Source: an uncultured Gammaproteobacteria bacterium (GTDB lineage: Bacteria; Patescibacteriota; Patescibacteriia; UBA11705; JABHMO01). Taken from it: a DNA stretch of 64,000 nt. The position numbers were made by a program, and so were the translations under genes. Where the stretch lies: NCBI GenBank assembly GCA_964590105.1, contig CAZPYM010000001.1, forward strand, positions 1,022 through 65,021, given 5' to 3'. Shown piece after piece: positions 21,254 to 56,736 of the stretch; position 1 is the stretch's first letter, and each line of letters begins with the position of its first letter. The notes beneath the pieces were generated by a model, which was not told where the DNA came from, made no database searches, and saw nothing but the letters and a program-made list of their open reading frames with translations.

Positions 21254-21278
21254 GTAAAGAAAGTATAATCAAGGAACA

Positions 21279-22829
21279 ATGAATTCAAAGACAAAACCAA
21301 CAAAACCATTAGCGCAAATATTGCCACTAAATGTTGCCGCGGCGCTGAATGTTGATTTTGGTGGTCAAACTAATGTTGAGATAGCCGGAAAATTTGGCTT
21401 ATCAGTCGGGCAACTGGCAAGAATGACTGGACTCATCGGCGAGATTTATAATAAAAAAATACCAGTTGGTCAGATTGATTTTGAGCTGGCCTCGCGTTTG
21501 GGTTTGGCAAAAGATAAAGTTGCAAAACTTGCTTTGGAAATTTGCGGTAAACGATTAATGATTGTTAATACGGTCTGGTTTGACGGCGCAGTAGGGAAGA
21601 AAATCAAAGAACTTGGTGGTGTGGCGGATGATTATAATGAATTTATTGCTGAATATGTGGAAAATGTTATCAGCGAAAAAGCAGAAGAAACGGCTACGCA
21701 AAGAATAGAGCAAGAAGAGGAAAAAATTACATTGAAAAAAGCTATAAAGAAAAAGATTGAAGAGGATCCAATTATGTTGAAAGATCCGCTTGCAGAAAAG
21801 CAATCGCTGAAAAAAGTTTTTGGCACTAATGTTGTACATGTATTAAGTTCAGGGGATTATAGATTGAAAATAGAATTAAATATCCGATTGATCACTTTGT
21901 TATTAAACGATGAGCCGGAGCAGGTTTTTCACAAAGAACTTCTGACTGCCCTGTACAACAATCATGAAGTTTTAACTAGTAAAAGAATATTATTAAAAGA
22001 CGAAAAAGTTGAGCCGACTATTAGCAACTGGTTAAAAGATTATGTCGGGTCAGTCGGACAGGATGAAACCGGTAGCGCCATTCAAAAAGCCCAGTACTTT
22101 ACTTCGTCGCCTAATATCCGAGCATTACTAAAAGAAGAAAAAGAGTTGGTCGACGGATTATTTAAATTTTATATTGCTTTGCAGAATTTTTATAGCAATG
22201 TCAGAAAAATGGACATGGAAGATATTTATATTTTTCCTTTTACTCCAAAAGAACAAGAGTCTTTATTAAAAGAAATTAGCGAACTTGAATCGGAAGAAGA
22301 AGAAGAAATTGCGTCGGTTGAAGGAGAAAAAGCAGAAGTAGGGACGATTAACATAATGGAACTATATCAGGACAAACCTGACGATCGTCAGAAAATTGAT
22401 GAGGAAAAGCAAAAGATTGTTCAAAATACGCGTAAAGAATATGACAAGATCGCGGATGCGATGGAGCCATTTTTATTAAATCGAAAGAAGCATAGTATTT
22501 TAGCGTGTCTTGAGCTTTTGGTTGAAACGGGCGCTCTCGATAATATGCTCGGCCAGGATGAGCGTTATCAGGGGTTTTTGTCTGGCTATTTCAAACGCAA
22601 CAATTTGCAGGCAGAAGACGAAAAGTTCAAAAAAGATCCGTATCAGGCAAAATACGTGCAAGCATTTTTACGATTTGTGTTTTTGGAAAGACTTGGCCTG
22701 GCGCCCGAAGAAGGCGCGCGGATCGCTGCCAATTATTCCAATATTTTTCGCAATAAAGGCGCGATTCGATATTCGCAACTAGCTTATTTGGATTTAAGCG
22801 ATAATAAATTTAAGTGGAGTGAATTGTAG
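21279..22829 (+). CDS. hypothetical protein (T4SS-like operon member)
   Basis: 516 aa, cytoplasmic-looking, Glu/Lys-rich. It sits 25 bp downstream of the VirB6-like gene. No recognisable motif. Confidence 0.6.
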   Translation: MNSKTKPTKPLAQILPLNVAAALNVDFGGQTNVEIAGKFGLSVGQLARMTGLIGEIYNKKIPVGQIDFELASRLGLAKDKVAKLALEICGKRLMIVNTVWFDGAVGKKIKELGGVADDYNEFIAEYVENVISEKAEETATQRIEQEEEKITLKKAIKKKIEEDPIMLKDPLAEKQSLKKVFGTNVVHVLSSGDYRLKIELNIRLITLLLNDEPEQVFHKELLTALYNNHEVLTSKRILLKDEKVEPTISNWLKDYVGSVGQDETGSAIQKAQYFTSSPNIRALLKEEKELVDGLFKFYIALQNFYSNVRKMDMEDIYIFPFTPKEQESLLKEISELESEEEEEIASVEGEKAEVGTINIMELYQDKPDDRQKIDEEKQKIVQNTRKEYDKIADAMEPFLLNRKKHSILACLELLVETGALDNMLGQDERYQGFLSGYFKRNNLQAEDEKFKKDPYQAKYVQAFLRFVFLERLGLAPEEGARIAANYSNIFRNKGAIRYSQLAYLDLSDNKFKWSEL

Positions 22830-22904
22830 GGGCGGGGAGTAGTAATTAGTAAGTAGTGAGATCTTCACTCACCATTCACCACTTTTCACTCGTTTCTGTT
22901 TAAT

Positions 22905-24113
22905 ATGCTAAACGATTATATATTAGTAAAAGACAAAGACGGCGAGCTGAAATATTTCAAGGACGGCAAATTTTTTAGTGTTGAGGAAATCGCCGAACAA
23001 AACAAGCAACGGGTTTTGCAAGCCCGGGAGCCAAAAAAGAAAGAATTAAAGCCTGACTTTACTTTGGAAACGCAAAAAAAAGCTGCTGTCAAGCCGATAA
23101 TTATTAAAAAAGAACAAGAAAAACCAATAATTATTGAAAAAGTACCTAAAAAATCAAGCGCCATTGAAAAAGCGCTGGAAAAAACGGTGCGTCCGCTAAT
23201 TCCGCCATTGCCTGCTCATGAAATTGAGTTTGAACAATTGGCCGGCGAAGATGATTTCAATAGCAAAAGATTGGCGGAACAAAAGCTTGTCGGCGTTAAA
23301 GTTGACGAGGCAATAAAAAAATTAAAAATTCAATTCAGCGATCCGCAGATCGAGAGCCGTTTCCGAAATATTTTAACCACTTTTTTCCGCGGAGTCCGAA
23401 CTGTGAGAGAACTCGGTTATATGCTTGGATTGCCGAAAGTCAGCGGAGGATTGGAATTACCAAAAGATAAAATAAGTTTAATATTGGCGGTTTTGGAACA
23501 AGAGCTCGTGGAAATGAACAAAGAGCGCCGTCAGATCGCGGCCAGAATAGAACAAAAGCCGGTTGATTTGGAGCACCGGCTGGAGCCGCCGCCGCCCTTG
23601 ATTATTAAAAAACCTGAGGATCGTTCAGCGGTTGAAAAAACAGCCCGCCGGCTTCAATCCTCTCCGTCTTTGATTAGGAATGAAGTTGGCGCAGATTTAA
23701 GCAGGACTCGCGTTAGCCGGCCGCAACCCGCTCTGCAAAAAAATGTTTTTGCACCGCGGCCAAGAATTGAAGACATGAAGGGGAATCGTCAATTAATCGG
23801 ACCGGTTGAAGAATTGGAAACCATGGAGCTAGGCGATTTTCGTCGGCTTGGCCGAGAAGAACAGGAAATAAAAAAACACTTGCTGGAAAAATTCAAGGTG
23901 CTTGCCGACCAGTCGTTATTAAAAAAATTACAAGGATTAAAAGCCTGGAAATCTTCACCTGTGTATAAAATATATTTATCGATGACTGTTGCAGGGATTA
24001 GAAACAGAGTGCCTCTTTCTCAGGTAATTGAAGATCGTCAATTAAATCATCAAGCGACGTTGACGTTAAGCGAATATGAAATGATTGGACAGCTGAATCA
24101 GGAATTGGAGTAG
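22905..24113 (+). CDS. hypothetical protein (T4SS-like operon member)
   Basis: 402 aa, with a Lys/Pro/Ile-rich N-terminus. No recognisable motif. Confidence 0.6.
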   Translation: MLNDYILVKDKDGELKYFKDGKFFSVEEIAEQNKQRVLQAREPKKKELKPDFTLETQKKAAVKPIIIKKEQEKPIIIEKVPKKSSAIEKALEKTVRPLIPPLPAHEIEFEQLAGEDDFNSKRLAEQKLVGVKVDEAIKKLKIQFSDPQIESRFRNILTTFFRGVRTVRELGYMLGLPKVSGGLELPKDKISLILAVLEQELVEMNKERRQIAARIEQKPVDLEHRLEPPPPLIIKKPEDRSAVEKTARRLQSSPSLIRNEVGADLSRTRVSRPQPALQKNVFAPRPRIEDMKGNRQLIGPVEELETMELGDFRRLGREEQEIKKHLLEKFKVLADQSLLKKLQGLKAWKSSPVYKIYLSMTVAGIRNRVPLSQVIEDRQLNHQATLTLSEYEMIGQLNQELE

Positions 24114-24211
24114 CAATAGAAAAGAAACTGGAAACTGGAAATTAGGGTTTATTGGAGAAAAGAAAAGCCCTGAATTATGCTTGGTAATATTAGATACGAG
24201 AAACAAAAATT

Positions 24212-24658
24212 ATGCAGCAATTTATCGTGCCCCAATTTATTGATGTGGAAGATAAAATTATTGGCCCGATCACTACGCGGCAATTTGTTATTGTGTTGGT
24301 CGGAGCGCTCGTAACTTTTATTTTATTTAAATTATTAGCTTTTGCGTATTTTGTTTTATCAGCCATCGTGGTGATGCCACTTGCGGCGATGCTGGCTTTT
24401 GCTCGGGTCAATGGCCGACCGGTTCATTTTTTTCTGTTGAATTTTCTTCAGACCTCAAAAAGATCAAAGTTGCGCGTTTGGAATAGAGAAGCGTATGTGA
24501 ATGTAGTCCAGGTGGTGGAAAGCCAAATTAAAGAAAAACCAAAGGTGCAGGCAGTCAAAGCAGCTGTTTCCGGTTCCCGTCTGCGCGATATTTCGCTGGT
24601 GGTAAATACTGGTGGCATTTATCAGGGTGAAGAGATTGCGAATGATTTATCTCAATAA
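24212..24658 (+). CDS. PrgI/VirB3-like small membrane protein
   Basis: The N-terminal 'VPQFIDVEDKIIGPITTRQFVIVLVGALVTF' matches the PrgI/TcpE-family signature (xPkdl..yedk..G.lt.RQ..) followed by two TM helices. It lies directly upstream of the VirB4 genes, as in Gram-positive T4SS operons. Confidence 0.55.
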   Translation: MQQFIVPQFIDVEDKIIGPITTRQFVIVLVGALVTFILFKLLAFAYFVLSAIVVMPLAAMLAFARVNGRPVHFFLLNFLQTSKRSKLRVWNREAYVNVVQVVESQIKEKPKVQAVKAAVSGSRLRDISLVVNTGGIYQGEEIANDLSQ

Positions 24659-24770
24659 TAATTTTAATTAAATAATTTCTTCCCCGCTTTAGCGGGATCT
24701 CCTACGTTGGCAGACGGTCAGACTAAGGCCTGCTTGTCGACAGGCAGGCCTGGCGGAAATTAAATTATAT

Positions 24771-25451
24771 ATGCACAGCAAAAAATTAGCCGGCAACAAA
24801 ATAACTCAGTCAACGCAATTATTTTTGGACATTGCCGAAATAAAAAATGACGCCGTGATTTTAAAAGACGGAACTTTGCGAGCGGTTCTGATGGTTTCGA
24901 GCATTAATTTTGCCCTAAAATCAGAAGATGAGCAAAATGCATTGGTTTCTGCTTATGTTACTTTTTTGAATTATTTGAATTTTCCAATTCAGATTGTAAT
25001 TCAATCCAGAAAGCTGGACATTGATGCCTATATCAAGAGAATCGAGGAGGCAGAGAAGAATTTAACTAATGATTTGCTTCGGCGACAGATTGTCAATTAC
25101 AAAGCATATATTAGAGAGCTGGTGGAGCTGGGTGATATTATGAGCAAGCATTTTTTTATTGTGGTGCCGTACAGCCCGCTCGATAGCTCGAAAAGCAGTT
25201 TTTCCAGCCGGTTGTCCGCGGTTTTTACTCCGGCCAAAGTGATCCAACTCAAACAAGAAAGATTTGAAAAATACGCGCATGAATTAAACCAGCGGTTGGA
25301 GCATGTCAACATGAACATTTCCTCTCTCGGCCTCACGACTGCGCGCCTTGATACGCAGAGCTTGATAGAGCTTTATTACAACGTTTATAATCCGGCCATT
25401 GCCAGAAGTCAAAAACTGGTTGATTTGGAAAAATTAAGAGTTGAACACTAA
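24771..25451 (+). CDS. VirB4/TraE-like N-terminal domain (separate ORF)
   Basis: 'LFLDIAEIKNDAVILKDGTLRAVLMVSSINFALKSEDEQNALVSAYVTFLNYLNFPIQIVIQSRKLD' resembles the N-terminal domain of Gram-positive VirB4 homologues. It ends in TAA 30 bp before the ATPase ORF. Confidence 0.5.
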   Translation: MHSKKLAGNKITQSTQLFLDIAEIKNDAVILKDGTLRAVLMVSSINFALKSEDEQNALVSAYVTFLNYLNFPIQIVIQSRKLDIDAYIKRIEEAEKNLTNDLLRRQIVNYKAYIRELVELGDIMSKHFFIVVPYSPLDSSKSSFSSRLSAVFTPAKVIQLKQERFEKYAHELNQRLEHVNMNISSLGLTTARLDTQSLIELYYNVYNPAIARSQKLVDLEKLRVEH

Positions 25452-25483
25452 TAATTTGAATAAAATAATTGAAAGAATAAAAT

Positions 25484-27379
25484 ATGTTTAAACCAGAAGA
25501 TGTCAAGAAAGCTCCGATAATTTCTGCGCCAATAGCGGTGCCGGAGACTTCTGAGCTACAAAAGACACAAAAAACAGAGCAAGAGGTGGTTGTTCAAAAA
25601 GTGACCATGGAGCAGGAAAAAACTTATAGGGGCGGATTGACATCGGTCCTCGACATTATTGCCCCGGCTGCTTTTGAAGTGACCCCCGATTCTGTGCGGA
25701 TAGGCGGTTTATTTGCCAGAACATTATTTGTAATGACTTACCCCCGCTATATTGCTGTCGGCTGGTTTGCCCCGATTCTTAATTATAATGCCACGCTTGA
25801 TGTAAGTATGTTTTTTTATCCGATGGAGTCTCCGGTTGTTTTAAAACAGTTGAGAAATAAGGTCGGAATTCTGACCGCCCAACTTACTACTGACGCGGAA
25901 AAAGGAGCACCGCGCGATCCAATGAGGGAAACAGCGTTGCGCGATATTGAAAAACTGCGCGATGATTTGACTCAAGGAGTGGAAAAATTTTTCCAGTTTT
26001 CGCTCTATATCACGCTTTATGAAAAAGACATGAAAGCCCTTGATATGCTAACCGAAGATATAGAAGCTGTGCTGGGTACGCGTTCGATCTTGTCAAAAAG
26101 AACTTTTTATCAGGCGGAACAGGGGTTCAGTTCAACCGCGCCTCTTTGCAATGATGAACTGATGATTACCGCCAATCTTAATTCCTCGCCGATTGCCGCT
26201 TCTTTTCCTTTTATTTCCTCGGAACTGACTTCAGATGAAGGAATTTTATTTGGCATCAATCGCCACAATAATAGCTTAATTCTTTTTGACCGGTTTTCTT
26301 TGCAAAATGCCAATTCTTGCGTATTTGCCACTTCCGGCGCCGGTAAAAGTTATACAATCAAACTGGAAGTTTTGCGCAGTATGATGCTCGGCACGGATGT
26401 GATCATTATTGATCCGGAAAGAGAATACAAGAATTTAGCTTCAGCTGTCGGCGGTACCTATATTAATATTTCACTTAATTCGGAAAGTAAAATTAATCCA
26501 TTTGATTTGCCGAGAAAAATGGGCGATATGAGTACGGCAGACATCATCCGGAGCGCTGTCATTACTTTGAAGGGGCTAATGCGCATCATGATCGGTGATA
26601 TGACCCATCAGGAGGATTCAATCATGGATCGAGCCTTGATTGAAACTTACGCGAAAAAAGATATTACTCCGGAAGCTGATTTGGAGAAAATTGAACCGCC
26701 GATTATGCAGGACCTCTATGAGGTGCTTGACGGCATGGAGGGCGCGTCGGATCTGGCGCTCCGGTTGAAAAAATTTACTACCGGCACTTTTTCCGGTTTG
26801 TTCAATTCGCCGACAAATGTGGACATGAATAATCAGCTGGTTTGTTTCACTGTTCGGGATTTGGAAGATGAACTTCGGCCAATGGCGATTTACAATATTG
26901 TTAATTATATTTGGAATGTTGTCCGCTCGGAAATTAAAAAAAGAATATTGGTAATTGACGAGGCCTGGTGGCTGATGCAGCACGAGGATTCGGCGCGATT
27001 CATTTTTGCGCTAGTAAAAAGATGTCGCAAATATTACCTTGGCGTGACTACGATTACGCAGGATGTAAATGATTTTTTGCTTTCACAGTATGGGCAGGCT
27101 ATTGTTACCAATTCAGCCCTAAAAATACTTTTGAAACAAGCGCCGTCTTCAATGGAATTGGTGCAAAAAGTTTTCCAGCTTACCGAAGGTGAAAAATATC
27201 TGCTTCTGGAGTGTAATATCGGCGAAGGAATATTTTTTGCCGGTAATCGGCACGCGGCTATTCGAGTAGTGGCTTCAGGTCTTGAAGACCAGCTGATCAC
27301 GACTGATCCGCGTCAGCTTTTGGAACAAGAAAAAAAGCAAAAGCAGGCTACGGAAGACGAAGCAGAGGTAGCAGTGTAA
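25484..27379 (+). CDS. virB4: VirB4/TraE/PrgJ-like type IV secretion ATPase
   Basis: Central 'FARTLFVMTYPRYIAVGWFAPIL' CagE/TrbE/VirB4 signature. Walker A 'ATSGAGKSY'. Walker B 'RILVIDEAWWLMQ'. 631 aa. Confidence 0.85.
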   Translation: MFKPEDVKKAPIISAPIAVPETSELQKTQKTEQEVVVQKVTMEQEKTYRGGLTSVLDIIAPAAFEVTPDSVRIGGLFARTLFVMTYPRYIAVGWFAPILNYNATLDVSMFFYPMESPVVLKQLRNKVGILTAQLTTDAEKGAPRDPMRETALRDIEKLRDDLTQGVEKFFQFSLYITLYEKDMKALDMLTEDIEAVLGTRSILSKRTFYQAEQGFSSTAPLCNDELMITANLNSSPIAASFPFISSELTSDEGILFGINRHNNSLILFDRFSLQNANSCVFATSGAGKSYTIKLEVLRSMMLGTDVIIIDPEREYKNLASAVGGTYINISLNSESKINPFDLPRKMGDMSTADIIRSAVITLKGLMRIMIGDMTHQEDSIMDRALIETYAKKDITPEADLEKIEPPIMQDLYEVLDGMEGASDLALRLKKFTTGTFSGLFNSPTNVDMNNQLVCFTVRDLEDELRPMAIYNIVNYIWNVVRSEIKKRILVIDEAWWLMQHEDSARFIFALVKRCRKYYLGVTTITQDVNDFLLSQYGQAIVTNSALKILLKQAPSSMELVQKVFQLTEGEKYLLLECNIGEGIFFAGNRHAAIRVVASGLEDQLITTDPRQLLEQEKKQKQATEDEAEVAV

Positions 27380-27402
27380 AAAATAAAATAAAATTTTGAC
27401 TT

Positions 27403-27984
27403 ATGTCCAATAGAGCAAAAGTAATCACAATTATCGTTGTCGGATTATTGGTTATCGCCGGGATAATTTATTTTTTCGTGCGTTCTGAAATGGAGCAAAA
27501 AGGCGTGAAGATGATAGATGAAAATGCGCCAGTGCCTCAGGCGGAAAACACTTTAGGCCAGGAGCCGGCGATCAAAGTTGCGCCGCCCACAAAAGAAGAA
27601 AAGCAGGCTTCCTCAGTAAAAGCAGTGGCGCAGACTTTTGCCGAAAGGTTTGGTTCATATTCAAATCACGCCAAGTATAAGAACTTTGACGAACTTTACT
27701 CCATGATGACTGCCGGAATGGAAGATTGGGTTAAAAACACATATATTCCCCAGTTAAATAATGAGCATAGTTCTGAAGGATTTTATTATCAGATCACCAC
27801 GGAAGCGCCGGTAGTAAATATCGTCGCGCAAACAGAAACAGCGGTAAAGGTTTTGCTTTCAACGCAGAGAAGGGAGCAATCAGGCGAGCAGAGTTCGGAA
27901 TTTTTGCAGGATTTGGAGCTGACTTTGGTGAAACAGGGTAATAATTGGTTTGTTGATGCGGCATTCTGGCAAGAAAGGGAGTAA
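27403..27984 (+). CDS. VirB8/PrgL-like bitopic membrane protein (candidate)
   Basis: 193 aa. One N-terminal TM, then a roughly 150-aa periplasmic domain of the size and Trp/aromatic pattern of NTF2-like VirB8. The call rests on position in the operon plus topology. Confidence 0.35.
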   Translation: MSNRAKVITIIVVGLLVIAGIIYFFVRSEMEQKGVKMIDENAPVPQAENTLGQEPAIKVAPPTKEEKQASSVKAVAQTFAERFGSYSNHAKYKNFDELYSMMTAGMEDWVKNTYIPQLNNEHSSEGFYYQITTEAPVVNIVAQTETAVKVLLSTQRREQSGEQSSEFLQDLELTLVKQGNNWFVDAAFWQERE

Positions 27985-39376: not shown

Positions 39377-39502
39377 TAGGAACCACTTGTCCCTTCGGGG
39401 CGCGGGTTCATGCTTGGCCTATATTTGAACAAAGTGAGTAGCTAGACTTGAGTAAAAGAAAAACTGACAATAGGCAGTTTTTTTTGATTAGCGCGAAGAA
39501 TA

Positions 39503-42085: not shown

Positions 42086-42100
42086 TCCTAAAAAACTAAA

Positions 42101-42130
42101 ACTGACCGCCCTCGAGCGATCAGTTTTTTC
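42101..42130. terminator. bidirectional rho-independent terminator
   Basis: actgaccgcc-ctcgag-cgatcagt hairpin followed by tttttt. It lies between convergent genes 41642-42085 (+) and radA (-). Confidence 0.6.
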
Positions 42131-43517: not shown

Positions 43518-45122
43518 TTATGGCATGCAAACATGTTGCATTAAATCACAGATTGGCCCGATTGGAGCATTTATACAATCATCATCATCTTCGCAACTGC
43601 CGGGAGTAAGTTCGCATTTGCCTGATTGGCAGGTTTCCCAAGCTTGGCAGGCGGGAGTACATGTAAGGCTTTGTCCAGCAGGGTCATAACATTTATGGTT
43701 AATAACATCGCAAGTGCTTTTTGCGGGATCGACAAGACAATCTCCATCATTATTGCACGCGCCAGTTTTTGGATAGCAGCTACCCTCGTCACATATTTCC
43801 CAGCTAGCACAGACTGGCACACAAGGAATATAAAGTTTTCCGCATTTACCAGGAGTCCATGTGCTGCCGGAGGCGCCACCTTTGGTAGTCATGTTTTTGT
43901 ATTGATCTCGATTGGCTGTAAATACAGAGCACCAGTCTTCTGTGATTGTTTCTTTAAGTTTGTCAGTTTTTCCAGTTGTGGCGTTTTTTGCGGTGGCAGT
44001 GCAACAACCTTGAGGCGCTGGGGTTTCTGTAGGTGAAGGATAGAATACCACACCCCAAGTTGGACCGATTGCTAGTTTTGTCCAAGCTTGGTTATAGCCA
44101 CACCCATCAGATTTGAAGTGACCGGAGGCTGGACCTTCGCCGATTATCAATGAGCAAAAGTTGCAGCCATTTGGATCTGCCATGGCATCGTCGACTTTTT
44201 TTTGACAGCCTTTAAATCGACTATAACCTTCTGCACCGGATTGAAATTCCATTCCATCGCCCAGTGATACGCCCACATGACCGAATTTCCAAAGTAGTCC
44301 GACGGGCAGGTTGTTTTTATTTGCCGATGTAACTACTTCCGTAATCCACCCTTTATTTTCTGCATTTTTCCCAGATTGTTGAGCGCTACCATTATAGGGT
44401 AGGTCGCAACCGATATATTTGAGAAACTTGGTGGCGGTGTATGCGCAATGACAAGGCCCCATGCAGATATTTAAGTCATGTAATTTTTGCGCTGCATCTT
44501 GAGCTGCTTTTTTTGAACAAGGAGGAAGAGTATTTGGCCCGATTAAATCTTCTATTTCATTTCCCGCGCCGAGTGGAGCTGTCATCGAGGCTGGTGGTTC
44601 TTCTGAAAAATCCTCGACTTGTTTAACTGTTTCAGTGTTTAGGCCACTCAATTTAACTAGATTTGGATTAATAATACTCAAAACTAAGTGCGCGCACATG
44701 AGTACGGCCAGACCGGTAATGGCGCCGAAAATCATTGTATTGGCTTTTTTAACATTTGCCGGTATGCCGCCGGCTGTCAGGTATAATATGCCTCCAATCA
44801 TTAAAATTACAACAGCAAAAATTGATCCTAGCGTAATGCTGTATTTATAAATTGCCACCATATACTCGGCAATCCATGGAATAGAAACAGTTTCTCCCGG
44901 GGTAAATTCATAAGTAGCAAGGCTAGGCATCCCTGGAATAGGAATGTTAATTTTTGGCGCGTCCATTTGTTGCTTGGGGGCGGGTGTTTGGGCAAAACAA
45001 ATCAGGGGCAGTAGAATAAAACTGGCGATTATAAAAACAATGAATAAACGCCCGGGCTTTATTTTTGAGAATGTTTTCATATTTTGTTTTAGCAAAACAG
45101 GAGTTGATTTTTGTCTGCCCAC
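43518..45122 (-). CDS. secreted Cys-rich protein with two-helix hydrophobic module and CHAP-like peptidase domain
   Basis: Signal peptide. Conserved module 'PKINIPIPGMPSLATYEFTPGETVSIPWIAEYMVAIYKYSITLGSIFAVVILMIGGILYLTAGG...TMIFGAITGLAVLMCAHLVLSIINPNLVKLSG'. CHAP-like Cys ('GPCHCAYTATKFL') and His ('KFGHVGVSLGDG'). The C-terminus carries 14 or more Cys in 'C-x4-DC-x5-8-CD' modules. Confidence 0.6.
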   Translation of the reverse strand: MGRQKSTPVLLKQNMKTFSKIKPGRLFIVFIIASFILLPLICFAQTPAPKQQMDAPKINIPIPGMPSLATYEFTPGETVSIPWIAEYMVAIYKYSITLGSIFAVVILMIGGILYLTAGGIPANVKKANTMIFGAITGLAVLMCAHLVLSIINPNLVKLSGLNTETVKQVEDFSEEPPASMTAPLGAGNEIEDLIGPNTLPPCSKKAAQDAAQKLHDLNICMGPCHCAYTATKFLKYIGCDLPYNGSAQQSGKNAENKGWITEVVTSANKNNLPVGLLWKFGHVGVSLGDGMEFQSGAEGYSRFKGCQKKVDDAMADPNGCNFCSLIIGEGPASGHFKSDGCGYNQAWTKLAIGPTWGVVFYPSPTETPAPQGCCTATAKNATTGKTDKLKETITEDWCSVFTANRDQYKNMTTKGGASGSTWTPGKCGKLYIPCVPVCASWEICDEGSCYPKTGACNNDGDCLVDPAKSTCDVINHKCYDPAGQSLTCTPACQAWETCQSGKCELTPGSCEDDDDCINAPIGPICDLMQHVCMP

Positions 45123-45223
45123 CCCTGCGAGATTTAGTCAGAATTATTTTTCTTCTGGCCACCTCACCGTCGAAAATTTGGTTTATTTCCTTAATTCAAT
45201 TTTTGCTCTCCCTTATGTTTTTG

Positions 45224-48200
45224 TTAATGACACTTGCCGGTATGTATATCTGTGCTGCAAATGAGGCTTGTAATGATATCGTGCGGGGTGTATGGAGCGA
45301 GACAGCTTCCGCCCGATGACCAGCTACCAAATAAACTGTCGCAAGTTGGTTTGTTAACGCTTATACCGTTTTGGGCCGCACTGACATCATTTGTTTTATA
45401 TTTGGAATGAAGTATTAAATCAGATTTACAACAACCCAGGGTTGTATCTGCCGGATTAATAACTGGAAAGAAGATAGCATTGACTCCCTTGATTCTGTTG
45501 TTTTTGGTATATGCGATGCATTGATTTTTTTCACCTTGAAATCCACCGTCACCATCTGGGGTTTCTCCACAGTTAAAAACTGAACGATGAACATCGACGG
45601 CGTTCATGTTTGGAATATTCATTCCTCCTTGCAGGCAGGCGGTTTTCATTTGCGGCGTGGCATTTTTTGCGCAGGTTGTTTTTTGCGCTTGGCTACAGCC
45701 ACTTGATTGGCAAGCACTAAAGACAGTTGATGATTCTACATCACCGCCTTGGCCGGTTGAAATTGATACATGCTGGACTGCATTAAAACCTCCGCTATAC
45801 AAAAGACCAACCGGCATTTGAGAATAGTAGTTTTGTGCCGCCCCTCCTTTGCCGCCGACAATTAGTCCTTTCCAGCCAAGCGCTGTCAATTGATCTTTGG
45901 CGCTACCAATAGATCCGAACCCTGGAATTTTACACCCGGCGTTACGGATAATCCTGGAGGCGATAAGAGCGCAGGTATTTGGTGCAGTAACAATATGTGA
46001 ATTTCCCCAAAGCATAGCGGTGCTTTTAATTTGTTCCGGGGTACAAGAAAGTTTGGCATCATAGCAGCCATTAGTTGAATATGGTGAAAGATCAAGAGCA
46101 CCTGCATGACAGGCGCCCGCAGTAACGGTGGCTGGACCAGAGGGTGCGCCAGGATCAGAAGTTAGCAATTCAGGCACTTTTCCATAATTTCCTTTTTGAT
46201 ATATGTATACAATGTCATAAACGCCACAGGCATCCCATAAGTCCGTTTCAGTAGCTGTTTTGGCATCTCCGCCGCATTCATTTTTAGTTTTATGACTGGG
46301 ATCATGTATTTGGTAAGTTGTTCCGTCATAATTGGCAACTACAATATAATGTCCGCCAGCAGTGAAAGGGCAACAAGGCGCTTTATTACCAGCTTTATCT
46401 TTGGTTTTAACATGAAAAATTATTGGAATACCTTTGCTTAAGAGTTGTTTAATTTCAGCTTTGTTCGATTGGCTCATTTGTTTGGCGTCTAGTCCGTTGC
46501 CTTTGGTAAAAGCCTCTATGCCCTTGTTATCCACGCCGCAACAAGTAGGCGCAGAAGTCCCTGCTACACTACCGGCCGGAGACCGTATGCCATTCTCCTG
46601 AACCCATCTGGCGACATCAGGAGGAATGACGCTTAGGCCATTAAAAGTGGCGACCATGGCGGTTGATGTTAATCCACAGCCAGAAGCTTGGATATTGTTT
46701 ACATTACGATTGGTTGTGCCGGTTACATTTTTACAGTATGCCACAAAATTATTTTTACCGTATGGATTTTTTTCGCACCAGGCGGCATCTTTTAAGTTTG
46801 GGTTTTTGCACATCTCTGATACATGATAGGTTGCTTCAATCGCTTCACAATTACTTTTTTCTCTGCAAACGGTTATCCCTTTTTCTTGTCCCGCTGGCCA
46901 GGGTAAAGTACTTACTCCCGGAAAGGTGGGTTTATATCCTTTTGGAATTCCGCAAGATAATGTTTCTCCGTCAACTTTACTGTCTTGATAGCTACATTTA
47001 TTGCCGGTCAGAGGAAAACAGGCCCATTTGCTATCAAATTGATAGTAATAAGGTAAATTTCCCGGTGTAGACAAGGTTGGATTGACCGTTGCAATGGAGC
47101 CCCATTCGCCCTCAATAATATTACCAATTGGCTTGACGGTTTCTATTGTTGTCCCACTCAGCTTCACTAGATTTGGATTGATAATATTTAAAATAAGGTA
47201 CGCACTCAGGAGAACAACTATTCCGCTGACAGCGCCGAACATCATGGTCTTTCCCTTTTGAATAAATTCACTGCTCCCGCCTGATGTAATATAGATAATT
47301 CCGCCAAACATAAAAATTAAAACAGCCAGAATTGCGCCGAGAATGATTGCATAGCTGTACACTGCAACAATATATTGAGCAATCCATGGAATTGAAACTG
47401 TCTCTCCGGCAGTATATTCTTGAGTTTCAAAATCTGCCAGTCCGGGGATAGGTATGTTGATTTTTGGTTTGACCATTTGCAGCTTCGCAGCAGCGGCGGG
47501 TGTTGACGTTCCTGATGTCGGAGCAGTAGGAGCAACTGGCGCAGCCGCTGGCTCAGTGCATTTGCCGGCTGTTGACGGCGGAGTAACTTCGCATTTTCCA
47601 GACTGGCAAGCGGCTTCATTGTTTATATTGCAGTCTGCATCTTTGCCAAGTTTGTCAACACAAAGTCCGGAATCCAAGCCTGTTCCGTCTGCGCAGTATT
47701 TTCCGTCCGGACATTGATCGTTTTTTTTGCAAATACAAATATCCTGTGGCGCGTTTGGTGGAATAATTTTATTTTCACAAATGCCGGAAATACAATGAGT
47801 TATATCGGTAGGGCATTGCTGGCCAATAGCGATTTTATCAACGCATGATTTGTCTGCATTGTTGCAATATTGATTGCCGGGACAATTGGCATCTGAAGTA
47901 CAGCCGCCGGCGCCGGCTGCTTCCAGCTTTGCCGCTTCTTCTGCCGTGAGTGGCAGGAGTATTGCTCCTTTGGAACTTTCGCAATAATGAAGGTCAAAAG
48001 ATTCGGGTGCTCCATCCTTGCATTCCCATATTTCGTTTGGATCGGAAATCCCGCCATTTAGCAGTGAAGCCTCAAGTTCGCAGTCATTTTGTGTTTTGCA
48101 AACGCAGAAATTGTCTCCCGCAACTGTCAGCGAGCTGTCTTCACAATCTCCTGAGGCGCATTCGGAGGTAGGAAGATCTAAATTGTTTGTGCATTTTTCG

Positions 48201-48310
48201 CCTATATTCAGTTTTGGATCTTCGGCCAGAGTTATAGTCGGAAATAAAAAAACAATCGCGCAAAATAATATCAGGGAGTATTTTATGTTTGTTTTTAGAG
48301 AAGAACTCAT
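45224..48310 (-). CDS. large secreted Cys-rich protein with the same hydrophobic module and two CHAP/C39-like domains
   Basis: 1028 aa. Signal peptide. About 250 aa of Cys-rich repeats. The module 'KPKINIPIPGLADFETQEYTAGETVSIPWIAQYIVAVYSYAIILGAILAVLIFMFGGIIYITSGG...NPNLVKLSG' is about 60% identical to that of the neighbouring 534-aa protein. Papain-like Cys/His pairs ('ASGCGLTSTAMV'...'GGHYIVVANYDG'; 'CALIASRIIRNAG'...'VQHVSIST'). Confidence 0.6.
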   Translation of the reverse strand: MSSSLKTNIKYSLILFCAIVFLFPTITLAEDPKLNIGEKCTNNLDLPTSECASGDCEDSSLTVAGDNFCVCKTQNDCELEASLLNGGISDPNEIWECKDGAPESFDLHYCESSKGAILLPLTAEEAAKLEAAGAGGCTSDANCPGNQYCNNADKSCVDKIAIGQQCPTDITHCISGICENKIIPPNAPQDICICKKNDQCPDGKYCADGTGLDSGLCVDKLGKDADCNINNEAACQSGKCEVTPPSTAGKCTEPAAAPVAPTAPTSGTSTPAAAAKLQMVKPKINIPIPGLADFETQEYTAGETVSIPWIAQYIVAVYSYAIILGAILAVLIFMFGGIIYITSGGSSEFIQKGKTMMFGAVSGIVVLLSAYLILNIINPNLVKLSGTTIETVKPIGNIIEGEWGSIATVNPTLSTPGNLPYYYQFDSKWACFPLTGNKCSYQDSKVDGETLSCGIPKGYKPTFPGVSTLPWPAGQEKGITVCREKSNCEAIEATYHVSEMCKNPNLKDAAWCEKNPYGKNNFVAYCKNVTGTTNRNVNNIQASGCGLTSTAMVATFNGLSVIPPDVARWVQENGIRSPAGSVAGTSAPTCCGVDNKGIEAFTKGNGLDAKQMSQSNKAEIKQLLSKGIPIIFHVKTKDKAGNKAPCCPFTAGGHYIVVANYDGTTYQIHDPSHKTKNECGGDAKTATETDLWDACGVYDIVYIYQKGNYGKVPELLTSDPGAPSGPATVTAGACHAGALDLSPYSTNGCYDAKLSCTPEQIKSTAMLWGNSHIVTAPNTCALIASRIIRNAGCKIPGFGSIGSAKDQLTALGWKGLIVGGKGGAAQNYYSQMPVGLLYSGGFNAVQHVSISTGQGGDVESSTVFSACQSSGCSQAQKTTCAKNATPQMKTACLQGGMNIPNMNAVDVHRSVFNCGETPDGDGGFQGEKNQCIAYTKNNRIKGVNAIFFPVINPADTTLGCCKSDLILHSKYKTNDVSAAQNGISVNKPTCDSLFGSWSSGGSCLAPYTPHDIITSLICSTDIHTGKCH

Positions 48311-48362
48311 ATTTGTTTTGCGGGATTAAGATTTATTTTAGTTTAGTTTTACATTTTGTGAA

Positions 48363-49640
48363 TTATTTTAACTTCATCAAATGCACTTCATGCGTTTCTT
48401 TGTCGGTAAAGTATAGGTTTGAGCCGTCTTCGGAAACCTGCATTTGTTCGATTGTAAAGCCGTATTGCGGCTCGGCGATGAAGCTTTTGACTCCGGTTTG
48501 CAGATTGACTTTGTAAATATAATCCGGAATATCATCCGCCAGGCGGGGAACTAAACCGGCGCCGTAAGGCATTTCTTTTGGCACGGCGCAATACATAATA
48601 TCGGCTGACTCAAAGGTGCATTTGCTGGCCCAGGTATTGAGCTTCAGGCTGTTGTGATTGTAGCCGACACTGTCGCCGACCGCATCAACAACATGGAGCA
48701 GAGGTTTATGGTCACTGAAAGCGTTTTGTGCGCTGTAAACAAGCTTTGAACCATCGGGCGTCCAGGCGGTTTCCAGCGCGTAGCCATTGACAGTAATCGC
48801 TTTGAATTTTTCATCGTATTGTCCGACGAAATATAGCTTGGCCGTGGAGCCTGTCTCGCCGGTTTTGTACTGAGCGATCATTTTGTTATTTGGTGACCAG
48901 TCAATTTTAAAATCTTTGTAATCATCGCCCATGTATTCAAGATAATTTTGTCCGGATCCGTCGGCATTGGCAATGCCCATGAAACGATATTCTTTGTTTT
49001 GATTTAAATCTTTGAAAGCGATTTTACTGCCGGTCGGGCTGAAACTGAAATCACTCCAGTCTTTTGGCAAGGATATTTGTTTTTCAGTTTTGAAGTTAAA
49101 TAAGATATTACTGCTATCCGGAAATTCCAAAATTGCTTGATCTTTTGTCGGGCTCCAGGCAATATTCTGGACATCTTTGTAGGTTTTGTCAGACAAAGAT
49201 ACTTTATTGCCGCGGTCGTCAACTGTATAGAATTTTCCAGAATCAGCATTGTAAATCATGGCGTTGTCACCGGTAGAATCAAGAGTAATCTTTGCGGCCG
49301 GCTCATAATCAAGCGTTATCACTTTTGTCAGGCCGCCCTTGGCAATTTGATCCACTTGCACGCCTAATGGTTCAGCCGGAATTTTAGTAACTGCCTTGGG
49401 CGTGACTTTTTCAACGCCGATTTTTTCTTCGCCGACCTCTTCGCCGACTAAACCAGGTTGAAGACCTTCATCTGCTCCGGGTAGCTGGCCGATCACGCCT
49501 TCTTCTGGCGCAGGCAGGGCCGGGGGCAGGGCTGGTTTGAAGAACAAAGAATAGATAAAATAAGCAATGACAAGACAAATTACAATAAAACCGGCAATAA
49601 TCGCGATTTTTTTCCAATCAACATTCTGAAGATTAAACAT
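48363..49640 (-). CDS. membrane-anchored PD40/TolB-like beta-propeller repeat protein
   Basis: N-terminal TM, then a Pro/Gly/Glu linker. Repeated 'WSPTKDQAILEF', 'FSPTGSKIAFK', 'WSPNNKMIAQYK', 'WTPDGSKLVYSA' PD40-type blades. Confidence 0.6.
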   Translation of the reverse strand: MFNLQNVDWKKIAIIAGFIVICLVIAYFIYSLFFKPALPPALPAPEEGVIGQLPGADEGLQPGLVGEEVGEEKIGVEKVTPKAVTKIPAEPLGVQVDQIAKGGLTKVITLDYEPAAKITLDSTGDNAMIYNADSGKFYTVDDRGNKVSLSDKTYKDVQNIAWSPTKDQAILEFPDSSNILFNFKTEKQISLPKDWSDFSFSPTGSKIAFKDLNQNKEYRFMGIANADGSGQNYLEYMGDDYKDFKIDWSPNNKMIAQYKTGETGSTAKLYFVGQYDEKFKAITVNGYALETAWTPDGSKLVYSAQNAFSDHKPLLHVVDAVGDSVGYNHNSLKLNTWASKCTFESADIMYCAVPKEMPYGAGLVPRLADDIPDYIYKVNLQTGVKSFIAEPQYGFTIEQMQVSEDGSNLYFTDKETHEVHLMKLK

Positions 49641-49670
49641 AAGTTTATTTTTATTATTATTTGATTGTTG

Positions 49671-51395
49671 TTAGAAAAGTTGCGTGATAAAGTCAAAAAG
49701 AGTATCAAGGTCAATTATTTCCCCGAGAAGCTTGGCCGTAAAAAACAGAACGATTAAGACCATGATAAAAGGCAAAAGCATTTGAATTATGGTTAGGATA
49801 CAACTGCATCCCAGGCAACAGCAAAATATCCGGTCGGTTGTTTTTCCTTTATCTTTGAAAAATTCATCGAGAAAATCAGGGATCATGAACATGCCCTTTA
49901 GATTTAGGATTATTCTAATCAACGTTCCCACTGCCGGAGCAACCGGAATGCAACATTTGCCCTTGAGCATTCGTCCGAGAGTTTTTTGTAAGCCCTTGGC
50001 TTTTGATCCTTGCGAAGCGCTTGCGGCGGCCTCGGCGGCTCGCGCTTTTAGTCCTTTTCCTTTTTCTTGTTGCGACCTGGCTTCCTGCTGGTTGCGTTGT
50101 AATTCTCTTTTCTTGGCGTCTTGTTCTTGTGGTGAAACAGTGTCTAGCTTTTGAGCGGGACCTTTTCCTTTCGGTTGAACGAGTGAAGGCGCTCCGGGCG
50201 GTGTTTTACTGCCTGCGTCTTCACCGATTTTTGACGTTGCTCGACCGCCCATTGTTTTCTCCCATTTTTTGTTCATCGCTGCTTCTTTTCTTGCTCCAGC
50301 TTGATTCATTTTAGTCATGGAACCTGGAACTGATTTTCCGCCGGGTTTTGTTAATTGCTCCATTTCTTTTTTTCGCTGTTCGTCAATTGGTTTTTGGCGG
50401 TCAATTCTTGACTTAGCGGCTTTTTCAAAATTAATGTCGCCGGTGGCTTTGCCACCTAATGGTTCTGCAAATCTTGGCTTCGCGCCGTTTTGAGCTTTTG
50501 TTTCTGGCTTTTGGTTTTGTTGGCGCTTGAGTTCACGTTTTATGCCCTGTTGATATTGAGCAAGTGGCGTTGCTTTGATTTTAGGGTTTTCTTCTTGATT
50601 TTTCTGTTGCGCTTGCGCGTCAGCCTGCTTTTTCTGTGCTTTGCCCTTTTCTTTCACTTTATCGCCGGCTTTTTCAATTTTTTTACCAGCCTTTTCAACT
50701 CCCTTGCCGGCTTTATCTACACCTTTACCAGTTGCTTTAGCTCCCTTCCCACCCAAACCCGCAAGTTTGCCGACTGCTGATAACGGAACACCAACGATAG
50801 CCCCTAATTTAGTTGCACTTAAGGCTTTGCCAGCTGCATCAAGTCCTTTACCTGCTACTTCTAATCCTTTACCTGCTACTTCTACGCCTTTGCCCGCTAC
50901 TTGTACGCCTTTGCCCGCTACTTTCATTCCTGTGCCCGCTGCTTTTGCTCCTTGCCCCGAGGCTTTCTTTACTTGACCGGATTTTGATTTAGGGCTTTCT
51001 GGTTGTGTGTTTTGATTAGACAAATGTTCATTTGCCGCGCTGGCATTTTCAGGTGTTATCCCTTCCTTATTTATTTTGTTTTCTGGGTCTTGTGAATCCT
51101 GTTGTTGTTCTAGTCCTTGTGCGGATTCATCTCTAGCACGTTGCTTGTATTGTTCCATTGTGTCGCCGGTTCTTTCCATTTCTGATTTAGTTCTGTTAAC
51201 GGCCTCCTCTCTTTGTGGTGCTAATGGCTTGTAACCCTCAACAGTGTCTTTAAATTCAGCATCCTGTTTTTTTAGTGCCTCTGGGTCTCTTTGCATCAAA
51301 CTAAGATCACGTTGACGTGAAAACTTTTGTTTAGTTTCTTCTCTTGATTTTTGTAGAGACGCAAGAGTTTTATTTTTATCTGATTGATTTGTCAT
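49671..51395 (-). CDS. Lys/Gly/Ala-rich protein with C-terminal multi-TM/Cys-rich membrane anchor
   Basis: 574 aa. A hydrophilic N-terminus with (V/L)AGKG(V/L)(E/Q/D) heptad-like repeats. The C-terminal 'CCIPVAP...FCCCLGCSCILTIIQMLLPFIMVLIVLFF' is hydrophobic. Composition resembles the tail of the 18365 protein. Confidence 0.5.
   Translation of the reverse strand: MTNQSDKNKTLASLQKSREETKQKFSRQRDLSLMQRDPEALKKQDAEFKDTVEGYKPLAPQREEAVNRTKSEMERTGDTMEQYKQRARDESAQGLEQQQDSQDPENKINKEGITPENASAANEHLSNQNTQPESPKSKSGQVKKASGQGAKAAGTGMKVAGKGVQVAGKGVEVAGKGLEVAGKGLDAAGKALSATKLGAIVGVPLSAVGKLAGLGGKGAKATGKGVDKAGKGVEKAGKKIEKAGDKVKEKGKAQKKQADAQAQQKNQEENPKIKATPLAQYQQGIKRELKRQQNQKPETKAQNGAKPRFAEPLGGKATGDINFEKAAKSRIDRQKPIDEQRKKEMEQLTKPGGKSVPGSMTKMNQAGARKEAAMNKKWEKTMGGRATSKIGEDAGSKTPPGAPSLVQPKGKGPAQKLDTVSPQEQDAKKRELQRNQQEARSQQEKGKGLKARAAEAAASASQGSKAKGLQKTLGRMLKGKCCIPVAPAVGTLIRIILNLKGMFMIPDFLDEFFKDKGKTTDRIFCCCLGCSCILTIIQMLLPFIMVLIVLFFTAKLLGEIIDLDTLFDFITQLF
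50848..50975 (-). repeat. in-frame 21-bp coding tandem repeats (~6 units, encode VAGKG(L/V)E)
   Basis: cctttRccYgctacttStaNN units read on the plus strand, inside gene 49671-51395. Confidence 0.75.
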
Positions 51396-56609: not shown

Positions 56610-56691
56610 GCGGATAATTCGGAGGAAGAAGAGGATTAAAGAAGATTGAAAAAGATAGTTTGTTGAAAGGTGAGATAAAATAGCTAAAATT

Positions 56692-56733: not shown

Positions 56734-56736
56734 TTA

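Follow-up and report, generated by a model that had tools for sequence, protein, structure and literature searches.

Two adjoining genes in the DNA analysed here (the window, 64 kb in full) raise the question of whether a conjugative-pilin-like module can be fused, within one secreted and cysteine-rich polypeptide, to cell wall hydrolases, and whether such proteins could supply parts that are missing from a T4SS operon in the same window. The original prediction placed two minus-strand genes of 534 and 1028 aa side by side, and both ORFs are present. The features of this region are the following.

42098..42127, minus strand: terminator-like hairpin 3' of radA (13-bp stem and T-run; consensus match only)
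43518..45122, minus strand: gene for a 534-aa protein with a pilin module, an NlpC/P60-like domain and a Cys-rich region (ORF, GTG start)
43521..44015, minus strand: predicted disulfide-rich C-terminal region (residues 370-534) of the smaller protein (sequence, Cys positions)
44088..44555, minus strand: putative cysteine peptidase domain with an NlpC/P60-CHAP fold at residues 190-345 of the smaller protein (candidate triad C226, H282, Q294)
44601..44981, minus strand: two-helix VirB2/T4SS_pilin-like module at residues 48-174 of the smaller protein (BLASTP; PF18895; module HMM, 195 bits)
44991..45080, minus strand: predicted Sec signal peptide at residues 15-44 of the smaller protein, MKTFSKIKPGRLFIVFIIASFILLPLICFAQ (hydrophobic segment spanning 20-49)
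45224..48310, minus strand: gene for a 1028-aa Cys-rich protein with a pilin module, a C39_2 domain and an NlpC/P60-like domain (ORF)
45611..46078, minus strand: putative second papain-fold domain of the larger protein, NlpC/P60-CHAP-like, residues 745-900 (homology to the smaller protein, fold; candidate residues C780, H847, E859)
46298..46690, minus strand: Peptidase_C39_2 domain of the larger protein, residues 541-671, with C545/H654/D670 (Pfam PF13529)
47111..47491, minus strand: two-helix VirB2/T4SS_pilin-like module at residues 274-400 of the larger protein (PF18895, BLASTP, module HMM)
47546..48310, minus strand: predicted signal peptide (residues 1-29; hydrophobic segment at 8-32) and N-terminal Cys-rich ectodomain (30-255) of the larger protein
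48363..49640, minus strand: gene for a membrane-anchored PD40/TolB-like beta-propeller protein, 425 aa
49671..51395, minus strand: gene for a Lys/Gly/Ala-rich protein, 574 aa, with C-terminal Cys-studded TM segments (sequence)

Translation of the smaller gene probably begins at M15 (45080); the resulting length of 520 aa is the one called in other assemblies, and a classical signal peptide remains. An identical copy of the 1028-aa protein was found on a 563,767-bp NCBI contig. Both genes are part of a minus-strand string that runs from clpB to radA with intergenic gaps of 22-101 bp, and the hairpin 3' of radA likely marks its end. On this strand the PD40 and Lys/Gly/Ala-rich genes, which had been called downstream, lie upstream (5') of the fusion genes, and the gene 3' of the pair is radA. 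The PD40 protein is membrane-anchored, as had been proposed, with one N-terminal TM segment (6-39), a PD40 match of 27.1 bits against a cutoff of 20.9, and a weak TolB match; among the neighbours of the arrays of related genes described below, its gene is the best conserved. The Lys/Gly/Ala-rich gene does contain the 21-bp coding repeats that had been noted (5.5 copies, 50844-50957), but their echo of the tail of the VirB6-like protein proved to be compositional only (BLASTP E 0.59, composition-corrected). The encoded protein had no match in Pfam or NCBIfam and is conserved in the closest loci only, at 25-38% identity, and it is uncertain whether it belongs to the fusion-array system.

The module that is common to the two proteins spans 127 aa (residues 48-174 of the smaller and 274-400 of the larger protein) with 74 identities (58%; BLASTP E 7e-45), and IINPNLVKLSG is present in both, in agreement with the shared module of about 110 aa and about 60% identity, ending in this motif, that had been described. 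The two copies are only 45% identical at third codon positions, which indicates that their likeness reflects constraint at the protein level and rules out recent gene conversion as its source. Between the two proteins the module is 58% identical versus 27% for the enzyme domain, and it is under strong constraint. In the smaller protein helices are predicted at residues 82-116 and 125-159, and in the larger one hydropathy places the hydrophobic segments of the module at 309-346 and 355-382. The helices, at about 35 residues each, exceed what a plain TM anchor needs, and the loop that joins them is short and has a nearly invariant Lys.

The resemblance to VirB2/TrbC-type pilins that had been suggested is borne out by profile comparisons. 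The Pfam family PF18895 (T4SS_pilin) matched the smaller protein at 19.7 bits (E 9e-4) and the larger protein at 20.2 bits (E 6e-4), both below the curated gathering score of 26.6 bits. The same family is matched by 73 of 96 close relatives, its cutoff is exceeded by the relatives P0058, P0145, P0005, P0007, P0013 and P0023, and the last of these, with eight tandem modules, passes the TrbC/VirB2 cutoff too; some of the relatives above the PF18895 cutoff are stand-alone. Moreover, the module profile matches 33 proteins (E 2e-40 to 1.5e-6), 30 of which carry a precomputed PF18895 assignment. The PF18895 proteins retrieved in this manner are stand-alone pilins of 100-230 aa, and two of them are encoded two gene positions 3' of VirB4 in PrgI-TraC-VirB4 operons. 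No VirB2 or TraA structure was found when the profile was compared with solved structures. Outside the hydrophobic helices, the module has the motifs IPW before helix 1 and NP.L after helix 2, and both also occur in the stand-alone pilins of T4SS operons. The fusion proteins have the layout of PF18895 proteins, in which a signal peptide (here predicted) precedes two long hydrophobic helices with a short basic loop. At 520/534 and 1028 aa, however, the two proteins do not have the size of small stand-alone subunits (precursors of about 100-200 aa), and at least 100 aa follow the module in 118 of 128 single-module relatives. The module is a divergent PF18895 T4SS_pilin (VirB2/TrbC-like) hairpin, and the fusion proteins may function as pilus subunits.

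The regions that flank the module are rich in cysteine, with 31 Cys residues (5.8%) in the 534-aa and 57 (5.5%) in the 1028-aa protein, matching the dozens reported earlier. Cys makes up 6.8% of the N-flanks and 4.0% of the C-flanks, versus 0.8% of the module. Residues 370-534 of the smaller protein comprise two copies of a C..C..WE.C..G.C...G.C..D.DC......CD...H.C unit and had no match in Pfam, and the first ~135 residues of the larger protein recur N-terminally in about 50 of its 150 closest relatives. The C-x4-DC-x5-8-C module of the original prediction is a real motif but covers only a minority of the cysteines, as the strict pattern C-x4-[DNQ]C-x5-9-C matches just twice per protein (at 456 and 510 in the smaller one), and the eukaryote-like appearance attributed to it carries no weight. 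The flanks are predicted to be extracytoplasmic and their cysteines may form disulfides; a DsbA-like gene lies directly 5' of two arrays.

Papain-like Cys/His domains, likewise anticipated, were found in both proteins. Peptidase_C39_2 (PF13529) matched the larger protein at 58.4 bits (gathering score 24; E 1.5e-15), and its triad is conserved among relatives (C545 in 13/13, H654 in 13/13 and D670 in 12/13). The second Cys/His domain is shared by the two proteins (residues 202-307 versus 756-868; 27% identity, BLASTP E 4e-7). The Pfam matches expected for these domains were thus obtained for C39_2, but neither the CHAP nor the NLPC_P60 HMM matched either window protein at E <= 0.1. The profile of the second domain gave only weak matches in the PDB (E 0.05-2), all 13 of which are NlpC/P60 chains, and its Cys-Ala and His are invariant in 9/9 sequences, most of which have E or Q as the third residue. 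In a moderately confident model (pLDDT 62) the Cys starts a helix (37-47), the His starts a strand (93-99), and the fold resembles Tae3, Tse1 and Tae4; it is a papain-like alpha+beta fold of the NlpC/P60/CHAP type. The hydrolase domains would thereby be carried on a membrane-anchored extracytoplasmic protein, as in VirB1-type enzymes, with the pilin hairpin as the anchor.

A search of related sequences placed the two proteins in a very large Patescibacteria family. The module profile matches 40,762 protein clusters, and in the nearest relatives the same module is combined with Amidase_2, VanY, M15_4, SLT, C39_2 (in 7 of 96 family members), NlpC_P60, Glucosaminidase, M23 or 3D, so that peptidoglycan hydrolases are interchangeable on one pilin module; relatives with 2-8 tandem modules per polypeptide also exist. 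The genes occur in arrays with one to four members, and a single array typically combines complementary hydrolase types. A PD40 propeller gene is directly 5' of the array in 24 of 37 loci, RadA/RecG are directly 3' in 22 of 35, and the synteny with clpB, radA and recG is kept across distant Patescibacteria. Array genes abut or overlap, as in locus L031 (8358-9608 and 9584-11041) and likewise in L039 and L055, and small intervening immunity-type ORFs are absent between the array members of these three loci. The earlier statement that no such system has been described holds in so far as pilin-hydrolase fusions are not mentioned in the T4SS literature searched, but the architecture is abundant in databases; consistent with these searches, it is undescribed and not rare.

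The relation of the fusion genes to the T4SS was assessed from the operon encoded elsewhere in the window.

18365..27984, plus strand: linked T4SS operon (Pfam TraC_F_IV, P-loop_TraG and PrgI; TM scan)
18365-21253, plus strand: gene for a VirB6-like polytopic protein (TM scan)
24212-24658, plus strand: gene for a PrgI/VirB3-like protein (Pfam PrgI)
24771-25451 and 25484-27379, plus strand: split VirB4

This operon, which also holds two unknown genes and the gene for a 193-aa TM protein (p193), lies about 16 kb from the fusion genes (VirB4 end at 27379) and on the opposite strand, as had been stated. No other pilin module was found in any frame of the 64-kb window. The gene order ClpB-PD40-array-RadA-RecG-...-ComF-p193-VirB4-PrgI is conserved: the distance between array and VirB4 is 5-8 kb in loci L038/L047 and L055, and ComF-p193 is near the array at the edge of locus L023. 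The T4SS and array loci are linked in a conserved super-locus (see also PMC12102498, section 14). These observations are consistent with the proposal that the cluster supplies the parts missing from the T4SS operon. At least eight arrays elsewhere lack T4SS genes within 10 kb; the gene 5' of these arrays is a pyruvate/2-oxoacid:ferredoxin oxidoreductase (POR_N) gene at six loci and a DsbA-like gene at two.

The explanation that we prefer, with confidence that is evenly balanced, is that each fusion protein is at once a VirB2-like and a VirB1-like subunit and presents wall hydrolases at the T4SS or where the cell contacts its host. Both proteins would be exported by Sec, with a VirB2/TrbC-type membrane hairpin as their conserved core, and the topology of this hairpin would put both flanks, with their disulfide-rich modules and papain-fold peptidoglycan peptidases, outside the cell. 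One polypeptide would then merge the pilin-equivalent (VirB2) and wall-lytic (VirB1) roles that are otherwise missing from the T4SS operon. The pilin module may dock the proteins to the T4SS or co-assemble with it, holding the hydrolases at the cell surface, where they could cut the peptide stems of peptidoglycan in the part of the cell's own wall that surrounds the machine, in the host wall at the contact site, or in both. Polymerisation is doubtful, as no known conjugative pilin comes anywhere near a subunit size of 520-1028 aa.

The closest known counterparts are the T4SS pilins of Patescibacteria (Southlakia epibionticum ML1, Nanosynbacter lyticus TM7x; PF18895), which have a homologous two-helix module and, like the fusion genes, form tandem arrays of sequence-divergent, Patescibacteria-specific paralogues. 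These pilins are linked to an MPF-FATA-like VirB4 system without a relaxase and usually without VirB1 (Wang et al. 2023, PMC10633639; Quinonero-Coronel et al. 2025, PMC12102498). They have been treated as small, stand-alone proteins inside the T4SS cluster (PMC10633639, PMC12102498), whereas the fusion module sits in proteins of 520-1028 aa with Cys-rich ectodomains and hydrolases, encoded about 16 kb from virB4 and 3' of a PD40 gene. PF18895 matches are given in the published survey without protein length or extra domains. The multidomain VirB1-like hydrolases PrgK (pCF10), TraG (pIP501) and CwlT (ICEBs1) of Gram-positive, monoderm T4SSs are likewise membrane-anchored, extracytoplasmic and peptidoglycan-cleaving (SLT, CHAP/NlpC-P60), as summarised in PMC12102498 and in part generally known. 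Their anchor is a single TM segment or lipid and not a pilin hairpin; furthermore, their genes belong to the transfer operon, and these enzymes are not Cys-rich and do not form arrays with swapped enzyme types, whereas the fusion genes lie outside the T4SS operon. T6SS Tae/Tge effectors and LXG toxins resemble the fusion family in that one conserved carrier module is combined with many, C-terminally variable hydrolase domains. Unlike these, the arrays have no adjacent immunity genes (the next gene 3' in the window being radA) and keep their chromosomal position, and their module is a mid-protein integral-membrane hairpin and not a soluble N-terminal delivery domain. In another filament system, flagellinolysin is a flagellin with an inserted metallopeptidase domain, a polymerising subunit that bears a catalytic domain on the filament surface; it offers a model of an enzyme-bearing filament subunit for the fusion proteins, in which polymerisation is putative.

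An alternative that we consider unlikely, and still deserving of serious weight, is that the proteins are housekeeping autolysins, in which a hairpin of pilin ancestry is a mere membrane anchor and which remodel the cell's own wall for growth and division together with the PD40/TolB-like propeller, independently of the T4SS. The fusion genes lie outside the VirB4 operon, in a string with the housekeeping genes clpB and radA whose synteny extends to distant Patescibacteria, and the 15 kb between them and the T4SS operon are full of genes for wall biogenesis (MurG, FtsEX, MurI, GlmM-like); an RlpA-like DPBB gene also belongs to the wall and division genes of the neighbourhood. This setting and location fit ordinary autolysins equally well. 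The arrays beside POR_N or DsbA-like genes without T4SS genes nearby also speak for this reading, as do the complementary hydrolase types per array, which recall an autolysin set. Against this stand the better conservation of the module than of the enzyme domains, the IPW and NP.L motifs in common with T4SS-operon pilins, a T4SS operon in the window without another pilin, and the repeated linkage of array and VirB4 operon.

More improbable, in our view, is that the proteins are precursors. Proteolysis at the module borders, near PKINIPIPG on the upstream side and INPNLVKLSG on the downstream side, would free a T4SS pilin of normal size and, as soluble secreted enzymes or effectors, the parts with the hydrolases and the Cys-rich regions, with the C39-like peptidase possibly taking part in processing. 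Canonical TrbC/VirB2 pilins mature by N- and C-terminal cleavage, and the C39 family consists of processing peptidases. Both borders of the module are conserved, and the relatives with 2-8 tandem modules look like polyproteins. However, C39_2 cannot be a general processing enzyme because it is present in so few family members, and a dedicated TraF-like peptidase was not seen in a non-exhaustive search of the window. That the proteins act as polymorphic toxins against other bacteria, with delivery into or onto competitors, or as adhesins with inactive enzyme-like domains, is very improbable: members of an array abut or overlap and have no small immunity-type genes between them, the locus is chromosomally conserved and neither variable nor mobile, the extreme C-terminus is not where the enzyme domains lie, and the intact catalytic residues argue against pure adhesins.

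As combined VirB2-like and VirB1-like subunits, such fusion proteins in an ultra-small (Patescibacteria/CPR) bacterium may represent a route by which parasites breach cell walls.

The genes encoding the 534-aa and 1028-aa proteins are part of a minus-strand string that extends from 53839 to 42152 with intergenic gaps of 22-101 bp, and consists of, in order of transcription:

51419-53839, minus strand: ClpB-like ATPase, first gene of the string
49671-51395, minus strand: Lys/Gly/Ala-rich protein of 574 aa
48363-49640, minus strand: PD40/TolB-like propeller protein of 425 aa with one N-terminal transmembrane (TM) segment
45224-48310, minus strand: 1028-aa protein, 3' of the PD40 gene
43518-45122, minus strand: 534-aa protein, between the 1028-aa gene and radA
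42152-43495, minus strand: RadA, last gene of the string

The PD40 and Lys/Gly/Ala-rich genes, which the original prediction had placed downstream of the two genes, thus lie upstream by direction of transcription. A strong hairpin with a T-run is found directly 3' of radA, and solely on the basis of the short gaps and this hairpin we infer an operon structure; relative to shuffled sequences, the region showed no enrichment of promoter- or terminator-like sites. The mechanical call of the 534-aa ORF (window GC content approximately 0.42) begins with a GTG located 14 codons 5' of a likely ATG, and its true start is probably M15 (45080), which exposes a typical signal peptide; the product is called as 520 aa in other assemblies. 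By its gene content the genome belongs to Patescibacteria (CPR), and a protein identical to the 1028-aa one occurs on an NCBI contig of 563,767 bp. The 574-aa Lys/Gly/Ala-rich protein has no family match, is kept only in the closest loci, and displays heptad-like AGKGVxV repeats as well as C-terminal hydrophobic segments with CC and CCC clusters. The 21-bp tandem repeat underlying these heptad-like repeats is real (5.5 copies, 50844-50957); its proposed echo of the VirB6-like tail was dropped, the similarity being merely compositional.

The segment shared by the two proteins comprises 127 residues with 58% identity (E 7e-45) and ends in both with IINPNLVKLSG, as had been proposed. Third-codon positions within it are just 45% identical and the same codon is used at 36 of the 74 conserved residues, so that recent gene conversion was rejected as the source of the module identity. 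In Pfam, both proteins matched PF18895 (T4SS_pilin) at E ~1e-3, under the gathering score, and the same family was matched by 73 of the 96 best relatives found with the module profile. Its cutoff was exceeded by stand-alone relatives of 150-200 aa and by relatives with several tandem modules, including one (P0023; 820 aa, eight modules, no Cys) that scored above both the PF18895 and the TrbC/VirB2 cutoffs. With a broader module profile, 33 proteins were found, mostly of 100-230 aa and nearly all with a precomputed PF18895 match, the few named ones being designated 'hypothetical protein'; two of these (P0167 and P0175) are encoded two gene positions 3' of VirB4 in PrgI - TraC-like - VirB4 operons adjoining dnaA. 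These retrievals indicate that, as judged from sequence profiles, homology to the small pilins reported from T4SS operons of Patescibacteria (PMC10633639, PMC12102498) extends over the entire module. The pilin-like designation therefore holds at the profile level, with the window proteins themselves remaining sub-cutoff for PF18895. Comparison of the module profile with PDB sequences yielded only chance membrane-protein matches and no VirB2 or TraA, and hence no sequence link to solved structures; neither NCBIfam nor public sources provided a name for the two proteins.

The single-sequence AlphaFold model of the 534-aa protein was poor (pLDDT 41) and was used exclusively for the two long module helices, predicted at approximately 35 residues each. 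The hairpin loop contains a nearly invariant Lys. Cysteines total 31 in the 534-aa and 57 in the 1028-aa protein, and Cys content amounts to 0.8% in the module, 6.8% in the N-terminal flanks, and 4.0% in the C-terminal flanks; this distribution, together with the N-terminal signal peptides, fits a hairpin of which both flanks would be located outside the cell and be disulfide-bonded.

Exhaustive scoring of the module profile against 1.84 billion cluster representatives gave 40,762 proteins at E <= 1e-3 and 9,380 at E <= 1e-10; a word-index homologue search returned no matches with the 127-aa module alone and only 4 with the whole 1028-aa protein. Among the 150 best representatives, 128 contain one module and 24 contain two to eight, and of the single-module proteins 118 continue for 100 residues or more past the module and just 8 are pilin-sized. 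The C-terminal parts (n=96) matched Amidase_2 (11), VanY (10), SLT (9), Peptidase_M15_4 (8), Peptidase_C39_2 (7), and more rarely NLPC_P60 (4), Glucosaminidase (2), GDSL lipase (2), and M23 (1), and the same range of domains was found in the syntenic loci. On these domain matches, a single conserved pilin-like module carries many alternative peptidoglycan hydrolases. Moreover, the 1028-aa protein begins with a Cys-rich domain of ~135 residues, which is also present at the N-terminus of approximately 50 of the 150 best relatives. The multi-module relatives, with two to eight modules head to tail (8 in P0023, 6 in P0013 and P0051, 4 followed by SLT in P0005), resemble pilin polyproteins or membrane proteins with several hairpins.

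Both window proteins had been predicted to contain CHAP/papain-like domains. In the 1028-aa protein, residues 541-671 match Peptidase_C39_2 (58 bits versus a Pfam cutoff of 24), of which C545 and H654 are conserved in 13/13 relatives and D670 in 12/13. A second enzyme domain is delimited by a segment common to both proteins (residues 190-345 of the 534-aa and 745-900 of the 1028-aa protein; 27% identity, E 4e-7, over residues 202-307 and 756-868) that contains a Cys and a His, and for which Pfam gave no matches in either protein. In an alignment of nine homologues, every one from a pilin-module protein, a Cys-Ala, several cysteines, and a His that precedes G-x-G are invariant, and the resulting profile gave 13 weak matches among PDB sequences, all of them NlpC/P60 enzymes aligned at the His motif. 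C226/H282/Q294 is the candidate triad of the smaller protein, and C780/H847/E859 that of the larger one. Along with the C39_2 match, these motifs and profile matches bear out the CHAP/papain-like assignment for both proteins. A stand-alone 219-aa Peptidase_C39_2/C70-like cysteine peptidase (37463-38122, plus strand), homologous to the C39_2 domain of the 1028-aa protein, is encoded between the T4SS operon and the array, i.e., the tandem genes encoding pilin-module proteins.

The T4SS operon of the window comprises the following features:

18365-27984, plus strand: whole operon, with a 962-aa polytopic VirB6-like protein, then two proteins without family match
within the operon, plus strand: PrgI/VirB3-like protein (39 bits versus a cutoff of 27)
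24771-25451, plus strand: TraC-like N-domain of VirB4
25484-27379, plus strand: P-loop ATPase part of VirB4
end of the operon, plus strand: 193-aa TM protein, with ComF next

The division of VirB4 over two ORFs recurs in two unrelated metagenome contigs (L060, 5792-8271; L061, 5892-8412) and is thus a conserved arrangement rather than a frameshift. No recognisable VirB1 was seen in the operon. A six-frame search of the 64 kb, covering all ORFs and all open frames from 40 codons upwards with HMMER filters off, matched the module profile only in the two genes, which excludes a hidden stand-alone pilin in the window. Beside and between the T4SS operon and the array (28005-41584 and 55272-59665) the DNA is dense in envelope genes, including ComF, MurG, SurA/PpiC-like, RlpA-like DPBB, FtsE, FtsX, GerM-like, GlmM-like mutase, Asp/Glu racemase, and RseP-like protease genes. 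Three large putative surface proteins are encoded 5' of the VirB6-like gene (7244-11179, 12442-14028, and 15919-18165, plus strand), namely a 1311-aa Thr/Ala/Gly-rich protein without family match, a Big_1/invasin-like Ig-domain protein, and a protein with two lamin-tail domains and acidic VEE/VDQ repeats, which could serve the same system as adhesins.

Scans of one-genome-per-species contigs and JGI metagenomes, the latter with a 12-sequence module alignment, provided 55 loci, the named ones belonging to Falkowbacteria, Parcubacteria, Uhrbacteria, and unclassified Patescibacteria, each with one to four tandem module genes encoding products of 270-950 aa. A PD40 homologue is located directly upstream of the array in 24 of the 37 loci with enough flank, and RadA or RecG directly downstream in 22/35. 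The gene order common to the window and these loci is PGM-like, ClpB, PD40, array, RadA, RecG, w35777 (a small conserved gene), ComF, 193-aa TM protein, VirB4, PrgI, which agrees with the published remark that comF, recG, and radA are common in ABY1-class T4SS loci. The VirB4 operon is merely 5-8 kb from the array in L038/L047 and L055, and in L023 ComF and the 193-aa gene lie at the edge of the fetched DNA; in the remaining loci, VirB4 would fall beyond the 10-kb flank if spaced as in the window. Six arrays (L009, L014, L020, L037, L049, and L053) are preceded not by PD40 but by a pyruvate/2-oxoacid:ferredoxin oxidoreductase (Pfam POR_N) gene, and two four-gene Cys-rich arrays have a DsbA-like thioredoxin gene directly upstream (L039, 6950-7672; L041, 8921-9685), which fits a need for extracytoplasmic disulfide formation. 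These eight arrays have no T4SS genes within 10 kb.

The best-supported reading, to which we give an even chance, is that a VirB2-like pilin module and VirB1-like wall hydrolases are combined in these proteins, and that they are functionally tied to the T4SS. Sec would export the two proteins and the hairpin would hold them in the membrane, with enzymes and Cys-rich modules exposed outside the cell; the pilin module would provide the functional tie to the T4SS, and the peptidoglycan cut would be that surrounding the machine, that of the host wall, or both. The main alternative, which we regard as possible but rather unlikely, takes the hairpin as a mere anchor and the proteins as ordinary autolysins working with the PD40 propeller, a view favoured by the wall-biogenesis genes around the two genes and by the occurrence of some arrays in non-T4SS contexts. 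Cleavage at the conserved module borders, releasing a normal pilin and free enzymes, is hinted at by the tandem-module 'polyproteins' and appears very doubtful. A toxin or adhesin role is the least likely, in view of the conserved locus, the intact catalytic residues, and the lack of any immunity genes seen within arrays. A bolder form of the T4SS-tied reading, quite unlikely in our estimate, is an 'enzymatic pilus' of ABY1-type and related Patescibacteria, in which a T4SS filament or stalk would be built from, or be tipped and decorated with, pilin subunits each bearing a peptidoglycan hydrolase and disulfide-rich binding modules, merging VirB1 and VirB2 and cutting the wall of the host bacterium at the contact site.

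In the sole species tested, epibiotic growth requires the Patescibacteria T4SS, for which neither a substrate nor a mode of action has been established (PMC10633639, PMC12857230). A genome survey counted PF18895 matches as 'VirB2 pilins' and judged VirB1-type hydrolases mostly missing (PMC12102498); the entries in the published supplementary table come without lengths or extra domains. The literature searched covers small VirB2-like pilins, pilin arrays, and the apparent VirB1 absence in Patescibacteria, and mentions neither pilin-hydrolase fusions nor Cys-rich ectodomains nor a PD40 partner. The original statement that no such system is described thus agrees with the literature searched; the components are all of known kinds and the architecture itself is abundant in databases. 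Its interest lies in its direct bearing on the role of the essential Patescibacteria T4SS. If a high proportion of the surveyed 'pilins' are in fact fused to amidases, carboxypeptidases, lytic transglycosylases, and cysteine peptidases, this would account for the missing wall-lytic function, which would have a testable role at the host surface in local wall breaching or wall-fragment harvesting. Together with the fusion array, the PD40 propeller gene offers a conserved set of targets in relatives amenable to genetics. Finally, an enzymatic pilus, if true, would explain both the essentiality of the T4SS for epibiotic growth and the seeming absence of VirB1 in the phylum.
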